A stretch of 64,000 nucleotides of DNA, taken from NCBI RefSeq assembly GCF_003334785.1, contig NZ_QOWV01000008.1; one strand, 5' to 3'. A program made the position numbers and the translations under genes. Within the stretch, counting starts at the first letter, position 1. The number at the start of each line of letters is the position of its first letter. A model generated the notes under the pieces. The model searched no databases. It was not told the origin of the DNA and saw only the letters and a list, made by a program, of their open reading frames with translations. This document shows, in pieces, positions 10,205-53,172 of the stretch. This DNA comes from Escherichia coli (GTDB taxonomy: Bacteria; Pseudomonadota; Gammaproteobacteria; Enterobacterales; Enterobacteriaceae).

Positions 10205-10305
10205 ACATCGTAGCCGATGAGGACGCGCCTGATGGGTGTTCTGGCTACCTGACCTGTCCATTGTGGAAGGTCTTACATTCTCGCTGATTTCAGGAGCTAT
10301 TGATT

Positions 10306-10719
10306 ATGCGTAACTTTGATTTATCCCCGCTTTACCGTTCTGCTATTGGATTTGACCGTTTGTTTAACCACTTAGAAAACAACCAGAGCCAGAGTAATGG
10401 CGGCTACCCTCCGTATAACGTTGAACTGGTAGACGAAAACCATTACCGCATTGCTATCGCTGTGGCTGGTTTTGCTGAGAGCGAACTGGAAATTACCGCC
10501 CAGGATAATCTGCTGGTGGTGAAAGGTGCTCACGCCGACGAACAAAAAGAGCGCACCTATCTGTACCAGGGCATCGCTGAACGCAACTTTGAACGCAAAT
10601 TCCAGTTAGCTGAGAACATTCATGTTCGTGGTGCTAACCTGGTAAATGGTTTGCTGTATATCGATCTCGAACGCGTGATTCCGGAAGCGAAAAAACCGCG
10701 CCGTATCGAAATCAACTAA
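10306..10719 (+). CDS. ibpA: Small heat shock protein IbpA
   Basis: 137-aa alpha-crystallin-type s[22 protein letters not shown]... Confidence 0.95.
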
Positions 10720-21961: not shown

Positions 21962-22455
21962 CAGGAAGTCAGGTCATTGATGCTGAAGAGGACAGGCATA
22001 AACTGGTTGTAGAGTACAAGGATGCTCTGCAACCTGCCGATTTTTATCACAATTTCAAACAGCGGGGCATCCGCTCCGTACAGCTCATTCCCTATCTTGA
22101 ATTTGATGACCGGGGCGATCTGACGGCCGCTTCGGTGACAGCAGAGCTGTGGGGGAAATTTTTAATTGCCCTGTTCGAGTGTTGGGTGCGGGCAGATATC
22201 AGTCGTATCTCGATTGAGCTTTTTGACGCCACCTTACAAAAATGGTGTGGCAGCGAAAACCCGCAACCGCGCTGTGACTGCCAGGCGTGCGACTGGCATC
22301 GCCTGTGCCCGCACGCTCGGCAGGAGACGCCAGACAGCGTGCTTTGTGCGGGCTATCAGGCGTTTTATTCTTACTCCGCACCGCATATGCGGGTGATGCG
22401 TGATCTGATAAAGCAGCATCGTTCTCCCATGGAGCTGATGACGATGCTGCGGTGA
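21958..22455 (+). CDS. yidF: Uncharacterized protein YidF
   Basis: 165-aa Cys-rich ORF overlapping yidG stop. Confidence 0.8.
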   Translation: MTGSQVIDAEEDRHKLVVEYKDALQPADFYHNFKQRGIRSVQLIPYLEFDDRGDLTAASVTAELWGKFLIALFECWVRADISRISIELFDATLQKWCGSENPQPRCDCQACDWHRLCPHARQETPDSVLCAGYQAFYSYSAPHMRVMRDLIKQHRSPMELMTMLR

Positions 22456-22462
22456 CGTGCGC

Positions 22463-23647
22463 TTAAACGGGCTGCCCCTGATGCGACATCCGCGTCGCCA
22501 GCGGCAGCCAGCACAGCACGATCAACAATCCCATTAAGGTCATCAACAACCCCAGGCTGCCCTGACCGGTTTGCGGCAACATCGCAGAGAGCGACGCCAG
22601 CACGCCGGAACCAATGTTTTGCAGACCGCCGACCAGCGCGCCAGCCGTGCCCGCCAGGAAGGGGAACGGCTCCATCGCGCCGCTGGTCGCCAGCGGAAAC
22701 AGCATCCCGGCACCGAAAAAGAACAGCGCGGCGGGAACGAGCAGCGTCCAGACATTCATCACGCCAAACCAGTCGGGGATCCACATCAGCAAGCCAGCCA
22801 GCAGGCAGCAGATAACCGACTGCCACATTAACGTGGAGAAGCGTTTATTGGGACGTCCGGCAAACCATGCGCCAAAAAACGCTGCCGGAATCGGCAGAAT
22901 AAACAAAATACTGACCGTCATACTGCTCAGCCCTAACACCGCGCCCATCAGCACGCCGGAGCAGGCTTCAAAGGCGGCAATCCCGGCCAGACCGCCAATC
23001 AGCATCAGCAAATAACAGTTAAAACCGCTGTTACCGAAAAGCGTTTTATAACTGGTAAGCAGGCGCGTGCGCGGTGCATCGACCGGACGCGTTTCCGGCA
23101 TCCAGCGGGCCATACTGAAGGTCACACCAGCACAAAGAACCAACAAAAAGAGATAACAGGCGCGCCAGTTCCACATCGTATCCAGCAGACCGCCGATTAG
23201 CGGTGCGAGCAACGGACTGACGAGAATCCCCATGTTTAACAGGCTGTTAGCATGGCGCAACTGTGTCCGTTCATATAAATCTCGCGGTAAAGTACGCGCC
23301 ATTACGCCGCCAACGCCGGTGCCCATCCCCTGCATCGCGCTGGCGGCAATCAACACCGTCAAACTGGAGGTCGTGACCGCGACCAGCGTTGCCAGCATAA
23401 AAATGGACATTCCGACGAGGATCACCGGTCGGCGGCCCACGCGGTCGGAAATCGGGCCATAAAACAGCTGTGAGACACCGTAAGTCAGCAGATAAGCGCC
23501 CATTACGCTCTGCACCGCCCCTTCACGGACGTTGAGATCGCGCGCCATATCGGCAATAGCTGGAATATAAATGGTTTGCGCCATCTGACCGACGGCCACG
23601 AGTAATACCAACATCAATAACAAATTGACGTTTCTTTGCCTTTTCAT
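22463..23647 (-). CDS. emrD: MFS multidrug efflux transporter EmrD
   Basis: ORF 22463..23653; start MKRQRNVNLLLMLVLL...; 394 aa. Confidence 0.9.
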   Translation of the reverse strand: MKRQRNVNLLLMLVLLVAVGQMAQTIYIPAIADMARDLNVREGAVQSVMGAYLLTYGVSQLFYGPISDRVGRRPVILVGMSIFMLATLVAVTTSSLTVLIAASAMQGMGTGVGGVMARTLPRDLYERTQLRHANSLLNMGILVSPLLAPLIGGLLDTMWNWRACYLFLLVLCAGVTFSMARWMPETRPVDAPRTRLLTSYKTLFGNSGFNCYLLMLIGGLAGIAAFEACSGVLMGAVLGLSSMTVSILFILPIPAAFFGAWFAGRPNKRFSTLMWQSVICCLLAGLLMWIPDWFGVMNVWTLLVPAALFFFGAGMLFPLATSGAMEPFPFLAGTAGALVGGLQNIGSGVLASLSAMLPQTGQGSLGLLMTLMGLLIVLCWLPLATRMSHQGQPV

Positions 23648-23821
23648 TATCACGGATGCTTTTATAAAAATAATTAGAATAAGTCACTACGCATTCCCAT
23701 AAATGCGGGAGAGGAATCTATCACATTGATGAATGTTAGCCAGATATACGCCAGGAATGGGGAATTGTTTAGCGGCAGAATATGTAAACAAAAGCGGCAA
23801 TAAATGTTGCCGGGAGAGATG

Positions 23822-23860
23822 GTAGGGCGGATAAGATGCGTCAGCATCGCATCCGACACC
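23822..23860. repeat. REP-like palindromic unit
   Basis: gtagggcggataagatgcgtcagcatcgcatccgaca motif. Confidence 0.4.
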
Positions 23861-23869
23861 AACCCGCAC

Positions 23870-23906
23870 GCTAAATATAAAAGGGGAGCGGTTTCCCGCT
23901 CCCCTT
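23870..23906 (-). terminator. Rho-independent terminator of tisB
   Basis: ggggagcgg..ccgctcccc hairpin with U-run on the minus strand. Confidence 0.5.
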
Positions 23907-23926
23907 TGGTGCGACTTGAATCTGAA

Positions 23927-24016
23927 TTACTTCAGGTATTTCAGAACAGCATCAAGCAGTTGCAGTGCTGCAACAATGAGTTTGAGGATAAGAATGGCGA
24001 TATCCACCAGGTTCAT
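23927..24016 (-). CDS. tisB: SOS-induced type I toxin TisB (29 aa)
   Basis: Minus-strand ORF encodes MNLVDIAILILKLIVAALQLLDAVLKYLK; below the 60-aa ORF-track cutoff. Confidence 0.9.
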   Translation of the reverse strand: MNLVDIAILILKLIVAALQLLDAVLKYLK

Positions 24017-24250
24017 ACGCGTCTCCTGTGGTTCAGGAGCACTGCCAGCTGACGTACCTTTCCGCTGCCTGTTGCCAGCTGTTGTGCACGCGGTATCTCA
24101 AGGAGAAACGTTGTGCTTGTTGACATAACACAGTGTGCTCACGCGGGGTTAAGGCGCTGACGGCACCACCCGTTTCAGCCAGGACTTAGTGCGCCGGGTA
24201 ACGATGCGGCCCCCGCATAACACATTGCGTACAGTGATATTATAGAAGTT

Positions 24251-24270
24251 TACTGTATAAATAAACAGTA
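24251..24270. promoter_or_regulatory. LexA box (SOS operator) at the tisAB / istR-2 promoters
   Basis: tactgtataaataaacagta matches the CTGT-N8-ACAG consensus. Confidence 0.8.
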
Positions 24271-24366
24271 ATATTTGGACAAAACGCAAACTGTGATCGA
24301 TACTCAACTATGCACTAAATACGTCAAAATTCGTGCCGAAATTGCGCGTTCTGCGCGGAACACGTA

Positions 24367-24452
24367 TACTTTCAGTGTTGACATAATACAGTGTGCTTTG
24401 CGGTTACCAGCCGCAGGCGACTGACGAAACCTCGCTCCGGCGGGGTTTTTTG
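24367..24452 (+). ncRNA. istR: IstR-1 antitoxin sRNA (approximate boundaries)
   Basis: tatact -10 element upstream; body is near-complementary to a copy at 24108..24135 inside the tisAB leader; ends at hairpin plus T6. Confidence 0.45.
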
Positions 24453-24580
24453 TTATCTGCAATTCAGTACAAAACGTGATCAACCCCTCAATTTTCCCTT
24501 GCTGAAAAATTTTCCATTGTCTCCCCTGTAAAGCTGTGCTTGTATAAATATTGTTAAACACAAAACCAACAAGGTCCCCA

Positions 24581-24679
24581 ATGACTACTTCCATGCTCAA
24601 CGCAAAACTACTACCAACTGCGCCATCCGCCGCAGTGGTCGTCGTGCGTGTGGTGGTGGTCGTCGGCAATGCGCCGTAG
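24581..24679 (+). CDS. ivbL: ilvB operon leader peptide
   Basis: 32-aa ORF MTTSMLNAKLLPTAPSAAVVVVRVVVVVGNAP with Val/Leu-rich control codons. Confidence 0.9.
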   Translation: MTTSMLNAKLLPTAPSAAVVVVRVVVVVGNAP

Positions 24680-24702
24680 GGACTGGAACAACACACGATT
24701 CC

Positions 24703-24737
24703 AAAACCCCGCCGGCGCAAACCGGGCGGGGTTTTTC
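24703..24737 (+). terminator. ilvB attenuator terminator
   Basis: ccccgccggcgcaaaccgggcgggg hairpin followed by T5. Confidence 0.75.
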
Positions 24738-24784
24738 GTTTAAGCATCTCCCGGAAAGTCGGCCCAGAAGAAAAGGACTGGAGC

Positions 24785-26473
24785 ATGGCAAGTTCGGGCA
24801 CAACATCGACGCGTAAGCGCTTTACCGGCGCAGAATTTATCGTTCATTTCCTGGAACAGCAGGGCATTAAGATTGTGACAGGCATTCCGGGCGGTTCTAT
24901 CCTGCCTGTTTACGATGCCTTAAGCCAAAGCACGCAAATCCGCCATATTCTGGCCCGTCATGAACAGGGCGCGGGCTTTATCGCTCAGGGAATGGCGCGC
25001 ACCGACGGTAAACCGGCGGTCTGTATGGCCTGTAGCGGACCGGGTGCGACTAACCTGGTGACCGCCATTGCCGATGCGCGGCTGGACTCCATCCCGCTGA
25101 TTTGCATCACTGGTCAGGTTCCCGCCTCGATGATCGGCACCGACGCCTTCCAGGAAGTGGACACCTACGGCATCTCTATCCCCATCACCAAACACAACTA
25201 TCTGGTCAGACATATCGAAGAACTCCCGCAGGTCATGAGCGATGCCTTCCGCATTGCGCAATCAGGCCGCCCAGGCCCGGTGTGGATAGACATTCCTAAG
25301 GATGTGCAAACGGCAGTTTTTGAGATTGAAACACAGCCCGCTATGGCAGAAAAAGCCGCCGCCCCCGCCTTTAGCGAAGAAAGCATTCGTGACGCAGCGG
25401 CGATGATTAACGCTGCCAAACGCCCGGTGCTTTATCTGGGCGGCGGTGTGATCAATGCGCCCGCACGGGTGCGTGAACTGGCGGAGAAAGCGCAACTGCC
25501 TACCACCATGACTTTAATGGCGCTGGGCATGTTGCCAAAAGCGCATCCGTTGTCGCTGGGTATGCTGGGGATGCACGGCGTGCGCAGCACCAACTATATT
25601 TTGCAGGAGGCGGATTTGTTGATAGTGCTCGGTGCGCGTTTTGATGACCGGGCGATTGGCAAAACCGAGCAGTTCTGTCCGAATGCCAAAATCATTCATG
25701 TCGATATCGACCGTGCAGAGCTGGGTAAAATCAAGCAGCCGCACGTGGCGATTCAGGCGGATGTTGATGACGTGCTGGCGCAGTTGATCCCGCTGGTGGA
25801 AGCGCAACCGCGTGCAGAGTGGCACCAGTTGGTAGCGGATTTGCAGCGTGAGTTTCCGTGTCCAATCCCGAAAGCGTGCGATCCGTTAAGCCATTACGGC
25901 CTGATCAACGCCGTTGCCGCCTGTGTCGATGACAATGCAATTATCACCACCGACGTTGGTCAGCATCAGATGTGGACCGCGCAAGCTTATCCGCTCAATC
26001 GCCCACGCCAGTGGCTGACCTCCGGTGGGCTGGGCACGATGGGTTTTGGCCTGCCTGCGGCGATTGGCGCTGCGCTGGCGAACCCGGATCGCAAAGTGTT
26101 GTGTTTCTCCGGCGACGGCAGCCTGATGATGAATATTCAGGAGATGGCGACCGCCAGTGAAAATCAGCTGGATGTCAAAATCATTCTGATGAACAACGAA
26201 GCGCTGGGGCTGGTGCATCAGCAACAGAGTCTGTTCTACGAGCAAGGCGTTTTTGCCGCCACCTATCCGGGCAAAATCAACTTTATGCAGATTGCCGCCG
26301 GATTCGGCCTCGAAACCTGTGATTTGAATAACGAAGCCGATCCGCAGGCTTCATTGCAGGAAATCATCAATCGCCCTGGCCCGGCGCTGATCCATGTGCG
26401 CATTGATGCCGAAGAAAAAGTTTACCCGATGGTGCCGCCAGGTGCGGCGAATACTGAAATGGTGGGGGAATAA
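24785..26473 (+). CDS. ilvB: Acetolactate synthase I large subunit
   Basis: 562-aa ThDP-dependent enzyme. Confidence 0.95.
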   Translation: MASSGTTSTRKRFTGAEFIVHFLEQQGIKIVTGIPGGSILPVYDALSQSTQIRHILARHEQGAGFIAQGMARTDGKPAVCMACSGPGATNLVTAIADARLDSIPLICITGQVPASMIGTDAFQEVDTYGISIPITKHNYLVRHIEELPQVMSDAFRIAQSGRPGPVWIDIPKDVQTAVFEIETQPAMAEKAAAPAFSEESIRDAAAMINAAKRPVLYLGGGVINAPARVRELAEKAQLPTTMTLMALGMLPKAHPLSLGMLGMHGVRSTNYILQEADLLIVLGARFDDRAIGKTEQFCPNAKIIHVDIDRAELGKIKQPHVAIQADVDDVLAQLIPLVEAQPRAEWHQLVADLQREFPCPIPKACDPLSHYGLINAVAACVDDNAIITTDVGQHQMWTAQAYPLNRPRQWLTSGGLGTMGFGLPAAIGAALANPDRKVLCFSGDGSLMMNIQEMATASENQLDVKIILMNNEALGLVHQQQSLFYEQGVFAATYPGKINFMQIAAGFGLETCDLNNEADPQASLQEIINRPGPALIHVRIDAEEKVYPMVPPGAANTEMVGE

Positions 26474-41738: not shown

Positions 41739-44072
41739 TCAGGCTGTTGCAGGGTCGTCACATTTCGGCAGCCAGTCGCCGTAGCTTTCCTCTTTCAGCG
41801 TCAGGTTGGTCTGTATCCCCTGTTTGGTATGGCGCTTCTCGTAATTCAGTCCGTATTCCTTCAGCATCACCGGCAGCCCCAGCCCGAACATTTTCAGACT
41901 GAGTACATTCCGGTAGCCGTTTGCCTCCATGTAGGCCAGATAGGCGTGATAGAGGTATTTACGGTAATTACGCGGGATGATACTGGCGTTCCCCATATAC
42001 ATGCCGCTGGTCTGCGGCAGGGTTTCCAGATAGCCGATAAAATCAAACGTCGGGTCGGCATCCCGTTTGATGTTCAGTGCCTCGTCTGAGTTCTGCTGGG
42101 ACTGAAGCAGTGACCGGGCGAGCATCGGGTCGCTGAACTTCTGCATCAGGTAACGCACGATGACCGCCAGCTCGCGGGTGATTTTGTCCTTAAGCTGCGG
42201 GTCGCGCTCCTGCGGGGCTATCTGTTCCGGGAAGTGAATAATCACCCGCCGGCGTGACACGCCGCCGCTGCGGTCGGTGAAGCGCATCGGGTTATTGTTC
42301 ACGGCCAGAATCACCGCCGGGATGTGCGTGGAGTACGCATCCCGGTATTTCGGGTCAACGGACACCGCATCGCCGCCGGTGATGGCCTTGAGTCCGGCAC
42401 CGTCGCCGCTCCATTTTTCCTGGTCCGGCAGGCGTATCAGTGAGAAGCCAGTTAACGCGGCACGTTCACGCGGGGATTCCAGCGTCTCGATGGTGGCCGA
42501 CGTGGCGTTATCCTCACCGGCCAGCAGGGTGGCTATTTCGGCCATGATACTTTTGCCGCTGCCGCCGGGACCGGTCACCTCCAGAAAGAGCTGCCAGTCG
42601 TAGCGGTTTGCCAGCACCATAAACAGTGCGGCCAGAATCACGTCGCGTTTTTCCGCACGGCCACCGGCGGCACGGTCAAGCCAGCGCCAGAATGCGGGGG
42701 CGTGGGTTTCCAGCGTTTCACCTTCCACCGGCGGGGTGAAATCCACATCGCACAGGGCGCGCATCCAGTGTGACGGACTGTGCGGGTGGAACGTGCCGTT
42801 CTGCGTGTCGAGCACGCCGTTACGAAAGCCAATCAGGCGGCGGGAGGGGGCTTCCTGCTGCGGAATAATCAGCTTCAGGGTGTCCACCACGGAGGCCACC
42901 TTCCCGGAGGAGAACGGCGCGCGCAGACGCTGAAACAGCCCGGCCACATCCCGGGCAAAGTCCTGTGGTGGCAGCACCTTCCAGACACCATTTTCATAGC
43001 GGGACAGAAGCTGGCCGTTGGCATCGACCGCGAGCGCCTCGCCGTAATGCTCATAGATACGCATGGCCTTTTCGCTGGTACTCATGGCGGAAAACTCCGC
43101 TTCGCTCATGGTGTCGAACGGGCTTTCAGCCGGTGGCCGGATGGCATCATAAATGGCCTTACGGGTGGTTTCCCCGCCGTACTGCGTGAAGGCATCATTC
43201 CAGTCACCGAAGACCGGCGGCAGGGCAACAACGCCCTCACACGCATCTGCGGCTGCGGCGGCTTTTTTCTGGCCGTCACCGCTGAGGTCACGGTCTGCGG
43301 CAAGGACAATCTGACAGGCCGGATGCTTCTGCCGGGCAAGGCTGGCCAGAGAAAGGAGGTTCACGGAAGAAAGCGCCACCATCACCGTTTCACCGGTCAG
43401 GTGATGTACGGTAAGTGCGGTCGCGTATCCCTCCGCTATCCACAGACGTTTTCCGGCCTGATTCTGTCCTTCAAGGGTGTGACAGGTGCCCCTGACCTGT
43501 CCGCCTTTCAGGGTGCGCTTACGGCCGTCAGCACTGATTAACTGAAGGTTAACCAGTTCGCCGCTGTCGTCATACAGTGGCACCACAAGGTCACCGGCGC
43601 GCCAGCTCACGCCACCGGCTCTGTGTGTGCCGGTCAGCATCCGGCATTCCCGGCCGGGAAAGCCCTTGCGGGTCAGGTAGGCGTTACCGGTTCCGGGACG
43701 GGTTTTCGCCATCAGGGTTTGTGCCAGTGCGGCGGCGTTCTTCCGGGCGGCTTCTGTTTCAGCACCGGCGGCGGCCGTCACTGCCGGGTCAGCCGGGGGC
43801 AGGCAGCCGGTCACGGCAGCCACCTTTGCGGCCGCGTCGGACGGGGAAACACCAAACACCTTTTCAACCAGTTTCAGGCCGTCACCGGCACCACACTGAT
43901 TGCAGTACCAGGTGCCGCGCCCCTCCCTGTCATCAAAACGGAAACGGTCACTTCCGCCACAGACCGGACAGGGCTGATGACGGTTTTTCAGCACCTGAAT
44001 CCCCAGCGACGGGAGAATACGCGGCCAGTGGCCGAGCGCATGGCTGACGGTGGCGGTTACGTTCATTTTCAT
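41739..44072 (-). CDS. P4 alpha-type primase-helicase
   Basis: 777-aa ORF; N-terminal zinc-ribbon CPVCGG..CNQCG, Walker A GPGGSGKS. Confidence 0.9.
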   Translation of the reverse strand: MKMNVTATVSHALGHWPRILPSLGIQVLKNRHQPCPVCGGSDRFRFDDREGRGTWYCNQCGAGDGLKLVEKVFGVSPSDAAAKVAAVTGCLPPADPAVTAAAGAETEAARKNAAALAQTLMAKTRPGTGNAYLTRKGFPGRECRMLTGTHRAGGVSWRAGDLVVPLYDDSGELVNLQLISADGRKRTLKGGQVRGTCHTLEGQNQAGKRLWIAEGYATALTVHHLTGETVMVALSSVNLLSLASLARQKHPACQIVLAADRDLSGDGQKKAAAAADACEGVVALPPVFGDWNDAFTQYGGETTRKAIYDAIRPPAESPFDTMSEAEFSAMSTSEKAMRIYEHYGEALAVDANGQLLSRYENGVWKVLPPQDFARDVAGLFQRLRAPFSSGKVASVVDTLKLIIPQQEAPSRRLIGFRNGVLDTQNGTFHPHSPSHWMRALCDVDFTPPVEGETLETHAPAFWRWLDRAAGGRAEKRDVILAALFMVLANRYDWQLFLEVTGPGGSGKSIMAEIATLLAGEDNATSATIETLESPRERAALTGFSLIRLPDQEKWSGDGAGLKAITGGDAVSVDPKYRDAYSTHIPAVILAVNNNPMRFTDRSGGVSRRRVIIHFPEQIAPQERDPQLKDKITRELAVIVRYLMQKFSDPMLARSLLQSQQNSDEALNIKRDADPTFDFIGYLETLPQTSGMYMGNASIIPRNYRKYLYHAYLAYMEANGYRNVLSLKMFGLGLPVMLKEYGLNYEKRHTKQGIQTNLTLKEESYGDWLPKCDDPATA

Positions 44073-44086
44073 GGTGTTGTTCTCCT

Positions 44087-44407
44087 TCAGTGCAGTACCG
44101 GCGCTTTTATGTGACGGGCACAGAGTTCATCCATCACAACCAGCCCGAGAAAGGACAGCGACGGCGCGGCCTTCAGGGGGCCGGATTCCATTAAATCTTC
44201 CAGCAGGGCACAGGCTATCTGACGCCCTTTTTCCTCACCGTGCTGGCGCAGATAAAAGCCTTCCAGCTCAGCGGCGATGGCCGCCTCCAGTGACTCAAGG
44301 GTGAGATGCGGGTAGCGGTGCTGACGTTCGCACACGGTCAGCCAGGCACAGGCGACAGCGCGACGGTAAAGGGCAGCGCGTAAGACGGGCGGTAAGGGGG
44401 TTTTCAT
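44087..44407 (-). CDS. Hypothetical protein, P4 left-operon position (orf106-like)
   Basis: 106-aa ORF immediately upstream of alpha, same strand. Confidence 0.5.
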
Positions 44408-44542
44408 TTGTTTTCCTCCCTGTGACAGATGACTGCATTCCGTGCCGGTTGCATTAACTGATAAGGCATATCTGCGTCTCCTGAAGACGTGCGTATCCCT
44501 GCGCGAATACGCACATTTAATTTTTCGGGTGTCGTTTTTTAA

Positions 44543-44998
44543 TTACAGATAATTGCGGTAACTGTTATCCGGGGTGATTTCCGGGTCAGGCTCCGTGCGG
44601 GGAATTTCCCGCCATTCCCGCGCCACCGGTGCCGCCCGGCTGACCGGAACAGGGTCCTGCGGGTAAATATCCAGATATTTCTCCCGCCATTTCTGTAATT
44701 CCGGGTCTCCGGCCATTTCTTTCAGTACCGCATGCCGGTTTACGGGGCTGCGTTTAAACAGGTCAGGACGGTCACAGGTAAATTCCCGCAGAAAACGCCC
44801 CAGCGGGATGTCTGTGGTGCGCCCGTCGGCGATGATACGCACAAGGATACTGAATTTACGGCGGTACGGGTTCCAGACAATTTCCGGGCAGCGGTACGGC
44901 ATTTCCCACGGAATACCGTCTTCCAGAATGCCGACCACGGCCACATCGGGAAAACCGGCAGAACGGTAAATCTCACCGGGCTGGGGAAAATCAAACAT
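44543..44998 (-). CDS. Hypothetical protein, P4 left-operon position (orf151-like)
   Basis: 151-aa ORF co-oriented with alpha. Confidence 0.5.
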   Translation of the reverse strand: MFDFPQPGEIYRSAGFPDVAVVGILEDGIPWEMPYRCPEIVWNPYRRKFSILVRIIADGRTTDIPLGRFLREFTCDRPDLFKRSPVNRHAVLKEMAGDPELQKWREKYLDIYPQDPVPVSRAAPVAREWREIPRTEPDPEITPDNSYRNYL

Positions 44999-45857
44999 GC
45001 GTCCTGTCTCCCCGGTCTTTCTGCTGGGCGAGAAAATCGCGGCACAGGCCTTTGGCTTTCAGCTCATTCAGCACAAAATCAATATCTTCATTCAGGTAAC
45101 TGAAAATATGCGGAATGTAGAGCTGATGCAGGCCGGAGAGTTCACGGTGAATCAAATCACCCCCAACAAACTGGGATACGGCGCTGGCGCGGTTGAGCTT
45201 ATGGTAAGCCTCAATGCTGAGGTGTTCACGGGCGTCATGACGCGCTGAGACGGTCTGAGGGGCTTTTTTATTACGCACGGGACACCTCCACCACCGGCAG
45301 ACGGGCAGCAAGGGAGAGCACATAGTCACGGACAAGGGAACGGCGGGCGCTGCGTTCATCACCGGCGACGGTGCGAAGCATACAGATACGGGGATGACGG
45401 TCTGTGCGACGGACAGCCGCAAACACAAAGACAAATTCAGGGTGTGAGGGGGTAAGGGTTGTAGCCATGATGGCAGCCTCCTGTGAATAGCAAATAACGC
45501 TATCGCCGGAGTTCTCACGCTCGATGGCGATAGCCCAGACGGGGGTGAGAATACCGGCTTCACAGGATACCGGCCAGCCCGGAGGCTGCCCCGCCTGAGC
45601 TACCATTGACTCAGAGGCATAACATGCGATTGCGAACAGGATCATACCTGCACGGCAAACCACACGCCACACCATAATCTGGTGCTCTGTGGCGTTGATT
45701 GCGACACAAAAAAAGACGCATGGCGCGTCATATGTCGCCTGTGAATTGCTCGGGTTCTCACGCCCGGCTGCCGATTTTGCGGCAGCGGAAAAACTATATC
45801 CGCAAATGCCGGAAAAAGGCAAGCCAGAAAAAGGGAGTTTTTGCAGAGCGGGCATCA

Positions 45858-46124
45858 TCATGCGTCGTACCCCCGTTTGCGTCCGGCAATGCGTCCGGCC
45901 ATCCATGCGGTGACTTCAGAGTGCAGCCAGGCCACATTTTTACCGCCAAGACTCACCTGCGGCGGAAATTCCCCCTTACGGATGAGTTCGTAGATGGTCG
46001 AGCGTGACAGGCCGCACAGGTGCATCACTTCCGGAAGACGTAAAAAACGCTCCTGTGTGATGTCCGGCAGCGGCATCAGTGGCGTCACAGGGGCGGGAGA
46101 CGGGGAAGAAAAAACAGCTTGCAT
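45858..46124 (-). CDS. AlpA/Vis-family small DNA-binding regulator
   Basis: 88-aa ORF with HTH-like [16 protein letters not shown]. Confidence 0.65.
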
Positions 46125-46403
46125 CGGGCTACCTCGTTAATGTCCATACAGCACCGGATAAGTCCGTCCGGCTTCAGGTAGCGCTTTATTTTGTGAATAT
46201 TTTCAGCAGACGCAACAGGGGGGATTTGTTCCGGCAGCCTTACAATGCTTGTGTATTTTTTGTTCATCTCCACTTAAAGTCATTTAAAGCCACTTAAAGC
46301 AATTCGTAATTTTTATAGTGAAATACAAATCGTTTTTTCTTATTCATTCCCGGCGAATTAATAAAAACAAACAGTAATAAACAGCACAAAAAGCCCATCA
46401 ACG

Positions 46404-46508
46404 GGTGAACAGTGGTGAACAGACGGTGAACAGTCATTACTGCGATTGTTCACCCTTTAACTTACTGTATTACTTATCTTTTTTCTTATGGTGAACAGAG
46501 GTGAACAG
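46404..46508. repeat. ori-like iteron cluster (GGTGAACAG octamer copies)
   Basis: Five direct copies of ggtgaacag plus one inverted ttgttcacc within about 105 bp, between divergent vis and sid. Confidence 0.6.
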
Positions 46509-46676
46509 TAAAATATAAAAAAACAAACAGTAAGCCGGTTTTTCCTACGACCTTTTCCTGGCTTGCCGGTGTGAGGATGAGTCTCCTGTGTCAGGGCTGG
46601 CACATCTGCAATGCGTCGTGTTGTTGTCCGGTGTACGTCACAATTTTCTTAACCTGAAGTGACGAGGAGCCGGAAA

Positions 46677-47411
46677 ATGTCTGACAACACCATCCCTGAA
46701 TATCTGCAACCCGCACTGGCACAACTGGAAAAGGCCAGAGCCGCCCACCTTGAGAACGCCCGACTGATGGATGAGACCGTCACGGCCATTGAACGGGCAG
46801 AGCAGGAAAAAAATGCGCTGGCGCAGGCCGACGGAAATGACGCTGATGACTGGCGCACAGCCTTTCGTGCAGCCGGTGGTGTCCTGAGCGACGAGCTGAA
46901 ACAGCGCCACATTGAGCGCGTGGCACGCCGGGAGCTGGTACAGGAATATGACAATCTGGCCGTGGTGCTGAATTTTGAACGTGAACGCCTGAAAGGGGCG
47001 TGTGACAGCACGGCTACCGCCTACCGGAAGGCACATCATCACCTTCTGAGTCTGTATGCAGAGCATGAGCTGGAACACGCCCTGAATGAAACCTGTGAGG
47101 CGCTTGTCCGGGCAATGCATCTGAGCATTCTGGTACAGGAAAATCCGATCGCCAACACCACCGGCCATCAGGGCTACGTCGCACCCGATAAGGCTGTCAT
47201 GCAGCAGGTGAAATCATCGCTGGAACAGAAAATTAAACAGATGCAAATCAGCCTCAGCGGCGAGCCGGTTCTCCGGCTGACCGGACTGTCAGCGGCAACA
47301 CTTCCGCACATGGATTATGAGGTGGCAGGCACACCGGCACAGCGCAAGGTGTGGCAGGACAAAATAGACCAGCAGGGAGCAGAGCTTAAGGCCAGAGGAC
47401 TGCTGTCATGA
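46677..47411 (+). CDS. P4 Sid-like capsid size-determination scaffold
   Basis: ORF 46659..47411; ATG at 46677 preceded by gaggag RBS; 244 aa, coiled-coil-rich. Confidence 0.8.
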   Translation: MSDNTIPEYLQPALAQLEKARAAHLENARLMDETVTAIERAEQEKNALAQADGNDADDWRTAFRAAGGVLSDELKQRHIERVARRELVQEYDNLAVVLNFERERLKGACDSTATAYRKAHHHLLSLYAEHELEHALNETCEALVRAMHLSILVQENPIANTTGHQGYVAPDKAVMQQVKSSLEQKIKQMQISLSGEPVLRLTGLSAATLPHMDYEVAGTPAQRKVWQDKIDQQGAELKARGLLS

Positions 47412-47908
47412 TTTACTGCCCGTCGTGTGGACATGTTGCTCACACCCGCCGCGCACATTTTATGGACGATGGCACCAAGATAATGATTGCACAGTGCCGG
47501 AATATTTATTGCTCTGCGACATTTGAAGCGAGTGAAAGCTTTTTCTCTGACAGTAAAGATTCAGGAATGGAATACATTTCAGGCAAACAGAGATACCGCG
47601 ATTCACTGACGTCAGCCTCCGGTAGCATGAAGCGCCCGAAAAGAATGCTTGTTACCGGATATTGTTGTCGGAGATGTAAAGGCCTTGCACTGTCAAGAAC
47701 ATCGCGGCGTCTGTCTCAGGAAGTCACCGAGCGTTTTTATGTGTGCACGGATCCGGGCTGTGGTCTGGTGTTTAAAACGCTTCAGACCATCAACCGCTTC
47801 ATTGTCCGCCCGGTCACGCCGGACGAACTGGCAGAAAGCCTGCATGAAAAACAGGAACTGCCGCCAGTACGCTTAAAAACACAATCATATTCGCTGCGTC
47901 TGGAATGA
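47408..47908 (+). CDS. P4 Delta-like late transactivator (tandem Ogr-type zinc finger)
   Basis: 166-aa ORF with two CxxC..CxxC blocks (CPSCGH..CRNIYC and CRRCKG..CTDPGC). Confidence 0.8.
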   Translation: MIYCPSCGHVAHTRRAHFMDDGTKIMIAQCRNIYCSATFEASESFFSDSKDSGMEYISGKQRYRDSLTSASGSMKRPKRMLVTGYCCRRCKGLALSRTSRRLSQEVTERFYVCTDPGCGLVFKTLQTINRFIVRPVTPDELAESLHEKQELPPVRLKTQSYSLRLE

Positions 47909-47981
47909 GGGCTGCCGGTTAACACCGGCCGTCGCCGCACACCGTATTTTTATTCTTCAGCATGATGAGAAAGAGATAACG

Positions 47982-48554
47982 ATGGAAAGCACAGCCTTAC
48001 AGCAGGCCTTTGACACCTGTCAGAATAACAAAGCAGCATGGCTGCAACGCAAAAATGAGCTGGCTGCGGCCGAACAGGAATATCTGCGGCTTCTGTCAGG
48101 AGAAGGCAGAAACGTCAGTCGCCTGGACGAATTACGCAATATTATCGAAGTCAGAAAATGGCAGGTGAATCAGGCCGCCGGTCGTTATATTCGTTCGCAT
48201 GAAGCCGTTCAGCACATCAGCATCCGCGACCGGCTGAATGATTTTATGCAGCAGCACGGCACAGCACTGGCGGCGGCACTGGCACCGGAGCTGATGGGCT
48301 ACAGTGAGCTGACGGCCATTGCCCGAAACTGTGCCATACAGCGTGCCACAGATGCCCTGCGTGAAGCCCTTCTGTCCTGGCTTGCGAAGGGTGAAAAAAT
48401 TAATTATTCCGCACAGGATAGCGACATTTTAACGGCCATTGGATTCAGACCTGACGCGGCTTCGGTGGATGACAGCCGTGAAAAATTCACCCCTGCGCAG
48501 AACATGATTTTTTCGCGTAAAAGTGCGCAACTGGCATCACGTCAGTCTGTGTAA
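47982..48554 (+). CDS. P4 Psu-like polarity suppression / capsid decoration protein
   Basis: 190-aa ORF following delta. Confidence 0.8.
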   Translation: MESTALQQAFDTCQNNKAAWLQRKNELAAAEQEYLRLLSGEGRNVSRLDELRNIIEVRKWQVNQAAGRYIRSHEAVQHISIRDRLNDFMQQHGTALAAALAPELMGYSELTAIARNCAIQRATDALREALLSWLAKGEKINYSAQDSDILTAIGFRPDAASVDDSREKFTPAQNMIFSRKSAQLASRQSV

Positions 48555-53077: not shown

Positions 53078-53172
53078 TGGCGGAAGATCACAGGAGTCGA
53101 ACCTGCCCGGGACCGCTGGCGGCCCCAACTGGATTTGAAGTCCAGCCGCCTCACCGGAGACGACGATCTTCC
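53078..53172 (-). tRNA. selC: tRNA-Sec (selenocysteine)
   Basis: Minus strand reads GGAAGATCGTCGTCTCCGGTGAGGCGGCTGGACTTCAAATCCAGTTGGGGCCGCCAGCGGTCCCGGGCAGGTTCGACTCCTGTGATCTTCCGCCA. Confidence 0.85.

Follow-up and report, generated by a model that had tools for sequence, protein, structure and literature searches.

The tisB/istR-1 toxin-antitoxin locus of an Escherichia coli contig: K-12 sequence form and conservation of its RNA-pairing segment among Enterobacteriaceae

The tisB/istR-1 system is among the best-characterised type I toxin-antitoxin systems and a model case for ribosome standby, tying DNA damage to membrane depolarisation and to antibiotic-tolerant persister cells. Several other E. 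coli systems, namely dinQ/agrB, zorO/orzO and shoB/ohsC, likewise combine a small hydrophobic membrane toxin with a divergently encoded sRNA (PMC4147584). In these systems, too, the toxin mRNA has a long 5' UTR, and the sRNA pairs with a short part of it at a distance from the ribosome binding site (RBS); dinQ is in addition controlled by LexA (PMC4147584). The type I system hok/sok, found on plasmid R1 and on the chromosome, resembles tisB in that its toxin mRNA is structured and undergoes processing, with control by an antisense RNA and cleavage by RNase III (PMC4147584).

The mechanism of tisB control has been described in the literature for a sequence identical to the one studied here (PMC6690012, PMC4147584, PMC2577331, PMC11264685). 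According to this model, LexA bound at 24251-24270 would overlap the tisAB promoter and silence tisAB until DNA damage occurs. Induction would then yield a 359-nt tisAB RNA from the minus strand, the primary form of which is reported to be untranslatable because the tisB RBS is buried in structure. Loss of the first 41 nt would give the +42 RNA and expose a single-stranded standby site on which 30S subunits and protein S1 can load. IstR-1, transcribed constitutively from its own promoter on the plus strand, would pair with the standby site through its 5' end, which would both stop ribosome loading and create an RNase III substrate, and cleavage would leave the inert +106 RNA. Once tisAB RNA is in excess of IstR-1, the 29-aa TisB would enter the inner membrane, collapse the proton-motive force and the ATP level, and thus favour drug-tolerant persister cells. 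The longer, SOS-induced transcript IstR-2 contains IstR-1 and is reported not to repress tisB. For the locus described below, SOS induction, processing to +42, the IstR-1-dependent RNase III cut that yields +106 and the toxicity of TisB are carried over from experiments on the identical K-12 sequence and would be expected to hold.

Here we describe a copy of this locus in the window, by which we mean the whole 64,000-nucleotide stretch of E. coli DNA that was analysed, and document its sequence identity, the positions of its elements (Table 1), its toxin and sRNA families, its 22-23-bp RNA complementarity and the conservation of that complementarity across genera with compensatory changes. A sequence-only reading of the window had placed a tisB/istR locus at 23870-24455, had called it known biology and had named non-identity to the K-12 istR-tisAB locus as one outcome that would speak against it. 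On alignment, 586 of 586 bases of this interval proved identical (100%) to K-12 MG1655, C600, J53 and others, and tisB is annotated beneath the match in those chromosomes; together with the family models and the mapped K-12 features, this identity bears out the assignment to known biology. The interval also turned out to hold the complete unit, bounded by the tisAB terminator (23880-23907) on one side and by the IstR terminator, ending at 24451, on the other. Over a longer distance, reverse-complementing NC_000913.3 3852000-3855500 reproduces 22069-25569 except for one base at 24747, which falls in the ilvB leader and thus outside the tisB/istR locus, and the flanking genes emrD, ysdE, ivbL and ilvB are the same as in K-12. 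We conclude that the locus is almost certainly the chromosomal tisB/istR-1 (tisAB-istR) type I toxin-antitoxin locus in its E. coli K-12 sequence form, situated between emrD and ivbL-ilvB.

Table 1. Features of the tisB/istR-1 locus and its flanks, in window coordinates
Feature	Position	Strand	Basis
emrD	23647..22463	-	K-12 annotation mapped
ysdE	23729..23803	+	K-12 annotation mapped
tisAB primary transcript (+1 RNA, ~359 nt)	23874..24232	-	start inferred from -10; T-run end ~23874
tisAB intrinsic terminator	23880..23907	-	12-bp perfect G+C-rich stem, 4-nt loop, then T-run
tisB coding sequence, 29 aa + stop	24016..23927	-	ORF list, NCBIfam, K-12 annotation
tisA ORF, 37 aa	24013..24126	-	ORF list
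tisB Shine-Dalgarno AGGAGA	24022..24027	-	sequence match; published RBS (PMC11264685)
IstR-1 target / ribosome standby site in tisAB RNA (copy 1)	24118..24140	-	repeat search; PMC2577331
+42 tisAB RNA 5' part, structured element beside standby site	24141..24191	-	alignment
Primary-transcript 5' 41 nt, removed to give active +42 RNA	24192..24232	-	PMC6690012, PMC2577331
tisAB promoter -10 TATAAT	24239..24244	-	sequence match; published -10 (PMC11264685)
LexA operator (SOS box)	24251..24270	.	consensus scan
IstR-2 promoter TGGACA, 17-nt spacer, GATACT	24276..24304	+	promoter scan; published elements (PMC11264685)
IstR-2 sRNA, 140 nt	24312..24451	+	K-12 annotation mapped
IstR-1 promoter TTGCGC (24342-24347), 17-nt spacer, TATACT (24365-24370)	24342..24370	+	published elements (PMC11264685)
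IstR pairing segment (copy 2)	24376..24398	+	repeat search; IstR-1 5' end from 24379 on
IstR-1 antitoxin sRNA, 73 nt as annotated	24379..24451	+	K-12 annotation mapped
IstR intrinsic terminator	24426..24451	+	10-bp stem, then T-run; scan gives 24426..24449
ivbL	24581..24679	+	K-12 annotation mapped

The tisB/istR-1 locus is already known in full detail, and finding it again has little discovery value. It does offer a lesson for annotation: a 60-aa ORF filter misses a 29-aa toxin gene, two overlapping sRNAs and an operator, and PGAP-style annotation gives tisB only, without istR. The presence of an intact K-12-type (N2) copy is also relevant to studies of the persistence phenotype of the strain. 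Around the locus, YsdE had no match in NCBIfam, and Rfam matches to STnc310, P6 and naRNA4 were dismissed, being below threshold and coinciding with the REP element and the terminator of the ivbL attenuator. We saw no data contradicting the tisB/istR-1 identity.

The TisB ORF (MNLVDIAILILKLIVAALQLLDAVLKYLK) had been described in the sequence-only reading as a 29-aa frame hidden from a 60-aa ORF track, and it was indeed found at 24016..23927 (-), appearing only when the ORF threshold was lowered to 20 aa. It matched two NCBIfam equivalog models at full length (1-29), NF011340 with 69.6 bits (cutoff 53) and TIGR04459 with 59.9 bits (cutoff 38), and is annotated as WP_001054909 / YP_001165331. 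At position 2 the window TisB has N, the variant of the K-12 lineage, where S occurs in 85% of E. coli (PMC11264685), E. coli E69 being an example. Within the 29-aa ORF, the core LILKLIVAxLQLL(D/E)AVLK is kept in 18 loci of other genera among the matches listed, and the GGAG core of the tisB Shine-Dalgarno sequence is conserved in most aligned loci.

From the tisAB -10 element at 24244..24239, transcription would start at about 24232, which would place +42 at 24191 and +106 at 24127, in agreement with the literature and with the published tisAB RNA length of 359 nt (PMC2577331). The putative +42 end falls inside the published cleavage region and the putative +106 end inside the IstR duplex. 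The -10 element is retained as (T/G)TATAAT or (T/G)TATACT in the alignment, and the tisAB terminator is conserved in 19/19 aligned loci among the matches listed. No block of the locus, the coding sequence included, is as conserved as the leader segment at 24141-24191 (19 loci, among the matches listed), which corresponds to the 5' stem-loop required for standby according to Romilly 2019 (PMC6690012). A 20-nt uxaA-antisense segment (24188-24207) overlaps the 3' end of the removed 41 nt and extends into this +42 block. RNAalifold detected no covariation or compensatory pairs in the tisAB leader because the +42 block is invariant, and the published stem-loop is thereby neither supported nor refuted. 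In the predicted folds of the +1, +42 and +106 RNAs the tisB RBS is mostly paired (unpaired probability ~0.2), in line with the published sequestered RBS. The 5' end of the predicted +1 fold pairs with 24148..24128, part of the IstR target, and the predicted accessibility of the target rises modestly from +1 to +42 (unpaired probability 0.38 to 0.48). These single-sequence folds are compatible with the published model and add no weight to it.

Upstream of tisAB lies the LexA operator (TACTGTATAAATAAACAGTA). Allowing up to 3 mismatches to TACTG(TA)5CAGTA, no other site was found in the 64-kb window and none in 100 shuffles; the bare CTGT-N8-ACAG core, of which 0.55 are expected per window, is not significant alone. 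The box had been reported as perfect at 24251..24270. This position is exact and the word holds for the CTGT-N8-ACAG core and for the TACTGT/ACAGTA arms, but not for the A/T-rich centre, where two mismatches reduce the agreement with the idealised palindrome to 18/20. Counted from the inferred start, the box spans approximately -38 to -19 of the tisAB promoter, and it ends 5 nt before the IstR-2 -35 element. A published 24-bp 'tisB operator' that was bound by LexA in SPR and EPR assays (PMC3159453) is an exact match at 24249-24272. Among the matches listed, the CTG and CAG of the box are invariant in 19/19 loci.

The IstR gene (+) lies divergent from tisB (-) and was recognised by the Rfam model RF01400 at 24322-24451 (+) with 150.1 bits (gathering score 45, E = 1.5e-32, model positions 1-130). 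The IstR-1 promoter sits inside the IstR-2 transcription unit and is conserved as TTGC plus CGTATA(C/G)TT in 19/19 loci among the matches listed. Published reporter constructs locate to the same region, with the PistR2 block matching 24250-24311 and the PistR1 block 24317-24379, both exactly (PMC13159721). The IstR-2 promoter falls inside the PistR2 block and has the right position for IstR-2. IstR-1 is predicted to form two stem-loops behind an unpaired 5' tail, the terminator being the second stem-loop.

The repeat TTGACATAA(C/T)ACAGTGTGCT is present in exactly two copies, both on the plus strand, at 24120-24139 and 24378-24397; no further copies with at most 3 mismatches were found on either strand of the 64-kb window, and 0 of 100 shuffles reached two matches. 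The sequence-only reading had the strand right but had put the copies at about 24108 and about 24373, which is 12 and 5 nt too low. It had also assigned one copy to the tisAB leader and the other to the divergent sRNA, and this proved correct, copy 1 being the published istR repeat and copy 2 the 5' end of IstR-1. Extended to full length, the repeat measures 22 nt (24118-24139 and 24376-24397, 21/22 identical), and the published 22-nt istR repeat of tisAB RNA, AGCACACTGTGTTATGTCAACA, is an exact match to 24118-24139 (-) (PMC2577331). Since tisAB is encoded on the minus strand and IstR on the plus strand, this direct repeat on the plus strand gives antisense complementarity: IstR 24376-24398 (+) and tisAB 24118-24140 (-) form 23 bp, comprising 21 Watson-Crick and 2 G·U pairs, of which 20 bp lie within annotated IstR-1, and the C/T difference between the copies amounts to one G·U wobble in the RNA duplex. 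Downstream of the target, the tisB Shine-Dalgarno sequence follows after 91 nt and the AUG after 102 nt, distances that agree with the published standby site approximately 100 nt upstream of the tisB RBS (PMC6690012).

Two further leads on pairing were set aside. A third partial copy of the repeat, CATAACACATTG at 24216-24227, was rejected as a second IstR site, as it would form only ~9 bp and is retained nowhere but in E. coli and some Citrobacter among the aligned loci. RNAduplex applied to the whole RNAs over-extended the interaction (-73.5 kcal/mol, with shuffles reaching -71) and ignores intramolecular structure, and we do not regard its output as evidence.

We also compared the locus across Enterobacteriaceae. 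Species-representative genomes were scanned with a DNA pattern built on the two IstR stem-loops only, so that pairing was not assumed. This G+C-rich pattern gave ~100 chance matches in high-G+C genomes, which were removed by requiring an upstream TisB-like ORF or LexA box, and at least 19 enterobacterial loci were kept, one of them incomplete and the sample of genera likewise incomplete. The loci among the matches listed came from Citrobacter (6), from Kosakonia, Enterobacter, Superficieibacter and Siccibacter (2 each), and from Phytobacter, Pluralibacter, Lelliottia, an Enterobacteriaceae MAG and E. coli E69 (1 each). Each of the 18 full loci among these matches encodes a 29-aa TisB in the aligned frame and contains the two copies of the repeat at a spacing of ~236-257 nt, and the promoters are also kept in the 18 related loci listed. 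A CTGT-N8-ACAG box is present in every full locus among them except that of Lelliottia, which has one core change. Elements conserved in the alignment comprise the tisAB terminator, the tisB ORF, the RBS, the target segment, the LexA CTG/CAG and the IstR pairing segment, and the IstR target (copy 1) is conserved in 19/19 loci among the matches listed. The IstR terminator belonged to the retrieval pattern, and its invariance in the alignment carries no weight alone.

In the alignment, 95.7% of the cells of the intermolecular 23-bp duplex are paired, compared with 22-49% in slid registers (12 distinct rows). Two duplex positions show compensatory changes from A-U to G-C, and the covariation score of the duplex, which rests on two columns only, exceeded that of all 500 shuffles. 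Approximately half of the differences between the copies are of one kind, with T in IstR and C in copy 1, giving G·U wobbles. Departures from pairing are an A·C mismatch that recurs close to the 5' end of IstR-1 in eight other loci among the matches listed, a single A·C mismatch in Citrobacter sp. Awk 4 and, in a Pluralibacter MAG, a G·G mismatch inside the duplex. We additionally observed that IstR keeps its 5' TTGAC in the eight loci, among those listed, despite the A·C mismatch with the target. At the sequence level, the comparison lends modest, independent support to selection on pairing, with the qualification that concerted evolution of direct repeats could mimic covariation.

The repeats might be explained without RNA pairing, as a relic of local duplication or as a segment maintained by gene conversion. 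The copies are direct repeats 258 nt apart, which recombination can homogenise, and most duplex columns never vary. Nevertheless, no repeat relationship exists outside the 22-23 nt, and both copies are conserved across ~10 genera among the matches listed while their flanks diverge. The T/C kind of inter-copy difference, about half of the total, keeps a G·U pair, and pairing, RNase III cleavage and rescue from toxicity have been shown experimentally (PMC4147584, PMC6690012), leaving this explanation with a probability close to negligible. It could also be argued that the LexA-linked long form, IstR-2, is the relevant antitoxin, induced together with the toxin, and that IstR-1 is a processing product or minor species. 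IstR-2 holds the entire 22-23-nt pairing segment (24376-24398), and its promoter adjoins the LexA box and is conserved between genera. In contrast, IstR-1 has a conserved promoter of its own (TTGCGC-17-TATACT), while the IstR-2-specific 5' part (24312-24375) is the least conserved stretch of the locus between genera and carries an 11-nt E. coli-specific insertion. IstR-2 has been reported to be made during SOS only and not to repress tisB, with IstR-1 alone of the two sRNAs reported as antitoxin (PMC11264685), and IstR-1 has been reported to be sufficient (PMC4147584). The predicted IstR-2 fold counts weakly in the same direction, since no more than the two leading bases of the 23-nt pairing segment are closed in a helix. 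We consider a primary role for IstR-2 highly improbable and retain IstR-1 as the antitoxin.

A different objection concerns the point at which IstR-1 acts on tisAB RNA. If tisA encoded a real leader peptide to which tisB is coupled as hok is to mok, IstR would block translation of tisA rather than standby. The arrangement in E. coli seems to allow for this, with copy 1 lying in the tisA ORF and the IstR target spanning its start codon (24126..24124), with the tisA stop overlapping the tisB start (ATGA, 24016..24013) and with the 37-aa ORF kept in >99% of E. coli loci (PMC11264685). Among the matches listed, however, the codon aligned to the tisA start is ACG in 13/19 loci and the overlapping stop is absent in 11 of the 19, and a 33-nt insertion that only E. 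coli and Citrobacter sp. Awk 4 possess accounts for much of the N-terminal half of tisA. The frame is lost through a frameshift even in E. coli E69, whereas TisB, the IstR target and the RBS are conserved in all of these listed loci. TisA had no match in NCBIfam, experimental evidence for its translation is not reported (PMC11264685), and binding at the standby site has been shown directly (PMC6690012, PMC11264685). Of the translated, conserved upstream ORF overlapping the toxin start that marks hok/sok-like coupling, what we found was the overlap in E. coli. The lack of conservation of the ORF argues against coupling of the mok/hok type, which we regard as very unlikely here; tisA is an open frame in E. 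coli but, judged from the aligned loci, probably no gene.

In addition, the locus is not present in all E. coli. A match to the locus was found in 4,359 of 5,426 complete E. coli genomes and the flanks in 5,425, and in ~20% of complete genomes other sequence replaces 23816-24462, a segment that takes in the REP element, tisAB, the LexA box and istR. In the one locus-less genome examined, that of a urinary isolate, ~114 nt of unrelated sequence lie between conserved flanks. This presence/absence polymorphism of tisB/istR is itself already published, with 82% full match, 3% interrupted and 15% none (PMC11264685). It is an unlikely, speculative idea that the module is a discrete exchangeable cassette and that the IstR 5' TTGAC hints at a constraint beyond pairing; if true, cassette exchange or the TTGAC constraint could hide undescribed biology of gain and loss or of IstR-1 biogenesis.

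The closest counterpart of the locus is that of K-12 MG1655 (tisAB-istR, formerly ysdAB; b4618/b4616), from which it shows no difference inside the locus, the two having in common their promoters, LexA operator, pairing segment, terminators and the N2 variant of TisB. The host genome is nevertheless not K-12, as it has an extra ~11.8 kb between tisB and selC that is partly P4-like. The loci of other Enterobacteriaceae have the same 29-aa TisB, Shine-Dalgarno sequence, standby/target segment, invariant +42 block and LexA box, as well as the same divergent IstR promoters and IstR stem-loops. They differ in being without the 33-nt tisA insertion, the tisA start codon and 11 nt of the IstR-2-specific part, in carrying mostly G-C at one duplex position that is A-U in E. 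coli, and in a TisB N-terminus of MGG or MGE compared with MNL or MSL. The toxins and sRNAs of dinQ/agrB, zorO/orzO and shoB/ohsC are unrelated in sequence to tisB/istR and are likened to them by description, and the standby-site mechanism has been demonstrated only for tisB and not for these three systems. The hok/sok system works differently: translation of hok is coupled to that of mok, a genuine leader ORF, and Sok, which overlaps its target in cis, prevents mok from being translated. Unlike Sok, IstR is encoded apart from its target and pairs with it through a short repeat, and unlike mok, the upstream ORF tisA is unconserved.

The toxin-antitoxin module tisB/istR is present or absent as an entire unit together with the adjoining REP element. 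In strain 82.0311 (urine) the flanks are conserved and about 114 nt of unrelated sequence occupies the place of the unit, which is missing from ~20% of complete E. coli genomes. The frequency of module presence/absence was previously reported (PMC11264685); the junctions of the unit were mapped in this analysis.

Within the module, we examined the 22-23-nt segment that occurs both as the IstR target in tisAB RNA and as the pairing segment of IstR. In 8 of the 18 other enterobacterial loci aligned with that of the window, including those of Kosakonia, Phytobacter, Superficieibacter and Siccibacter, an A·C mismatch recurs at 24381 / 24123 (duplex position 6, alignment A2), 3 nt from the 5' end of IstR-1, with TTGAC kept in IstR and TTGGC in the target copy. 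The tisAB leader has, in its 5'-most 41 nt, a third copy of the repeat core that is partial, CATAACACATTG (11/12), and in the predicted fold of the primary (+1) transcript the 5' end carrying it forms base pairs with a portion of the IstR target. According to the locus alignment, this copy is retained in E. coli and in some of the Citrobacter loci, but not in the others. The same alignment showed that the tisA ORF, upstream of tisB, is not conserved beyond E. coli: its start codon becomes ACG in 13 of the 19 loci and the overlapping stop is gone in 11, and an insertion of 33 nt (11 codons) in tisA is found, besides E. coli, only in Citrobacter sp. Awk 4.

Features of the tisB/istR region and its surroundings (window coordinates)
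Feature	Position	Strand	Remark
ysdE	23729-23803	+	24-aa ORF, annotated in K-12
Presence/absence unit	23816-24462		
REP element	23816-23870		
naRNA4 match	23826-23858		Rfam, sub-threshold
dinD-antisense segment	23947-23962	-	16 nt
tisA ORF	24013-24126	-	
tisA insertion	~24085-24117		
uxaA-antisense segment	24188-24207	-	20 nt
Third partial repeat copy	24216-24227	+	
ivbL leader peptide and downstream hairpin	24581-24742	+	
G+C-rich hairpin	~24704-24742		
P4-like stretch	43000-48500		
C4 antisense RNA, isrK, c4-a1b1 matches	45523-45799	-	Rfam
selC (tRNA-Sec)	53078-53172	-	

On one side of the module, ysdE, for which an NCBIfam search returned no match, is followed by one REP element, already mentioned in PMC2577331, that carries the naRNA4 match. 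On the other, the Val- and Leu-rich ivbL leader peptide, MTTSMLNAKLLPTAPSAAVVVVRVVVVVGNAP, is followed 3' by a G+C-rich hairpin upstream of ilvB, presumably the ivbL attenuator terminator, and this hairpin accounts for sub-threshold STnc310 and P6 matches. Comparison with MG1655 over 3.5 kb revealed a sole difference, T in the window versus C at 24747, in the stretch that separates the ilvB start from the ivbL attenuator terminator.

The window comes from a non-K-12 strain. Here tisB and selC lie 29 kb apart, about 11.8 kb more than the ~17 kb that separate them in MG1655. Genes in this extra DNA include a P4-like satellite prophage set (primase-helicase, Icd-like, Psu and Ogr/Delta), and the P4-like stretch, with its three Rfam matches, shares 100% identity with E. 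coli A1 (NZ_CP029328). Elsewhere in the window we observed an ES036/CssrF sRNA match (44.8 bits, 67-109, - strand) and a ROSE_2 RNA thermometer match (100 bits, 10240-10312, + strand), the latter being, in K-12, the element found upstream of the heat-shock gene ibpA.

Finally, tisAB RNA has been described as containing segments antisense to uxaA and dinD (PMC2577331). Both segments are unchanged from the published sequence; the window does not contain their targets.
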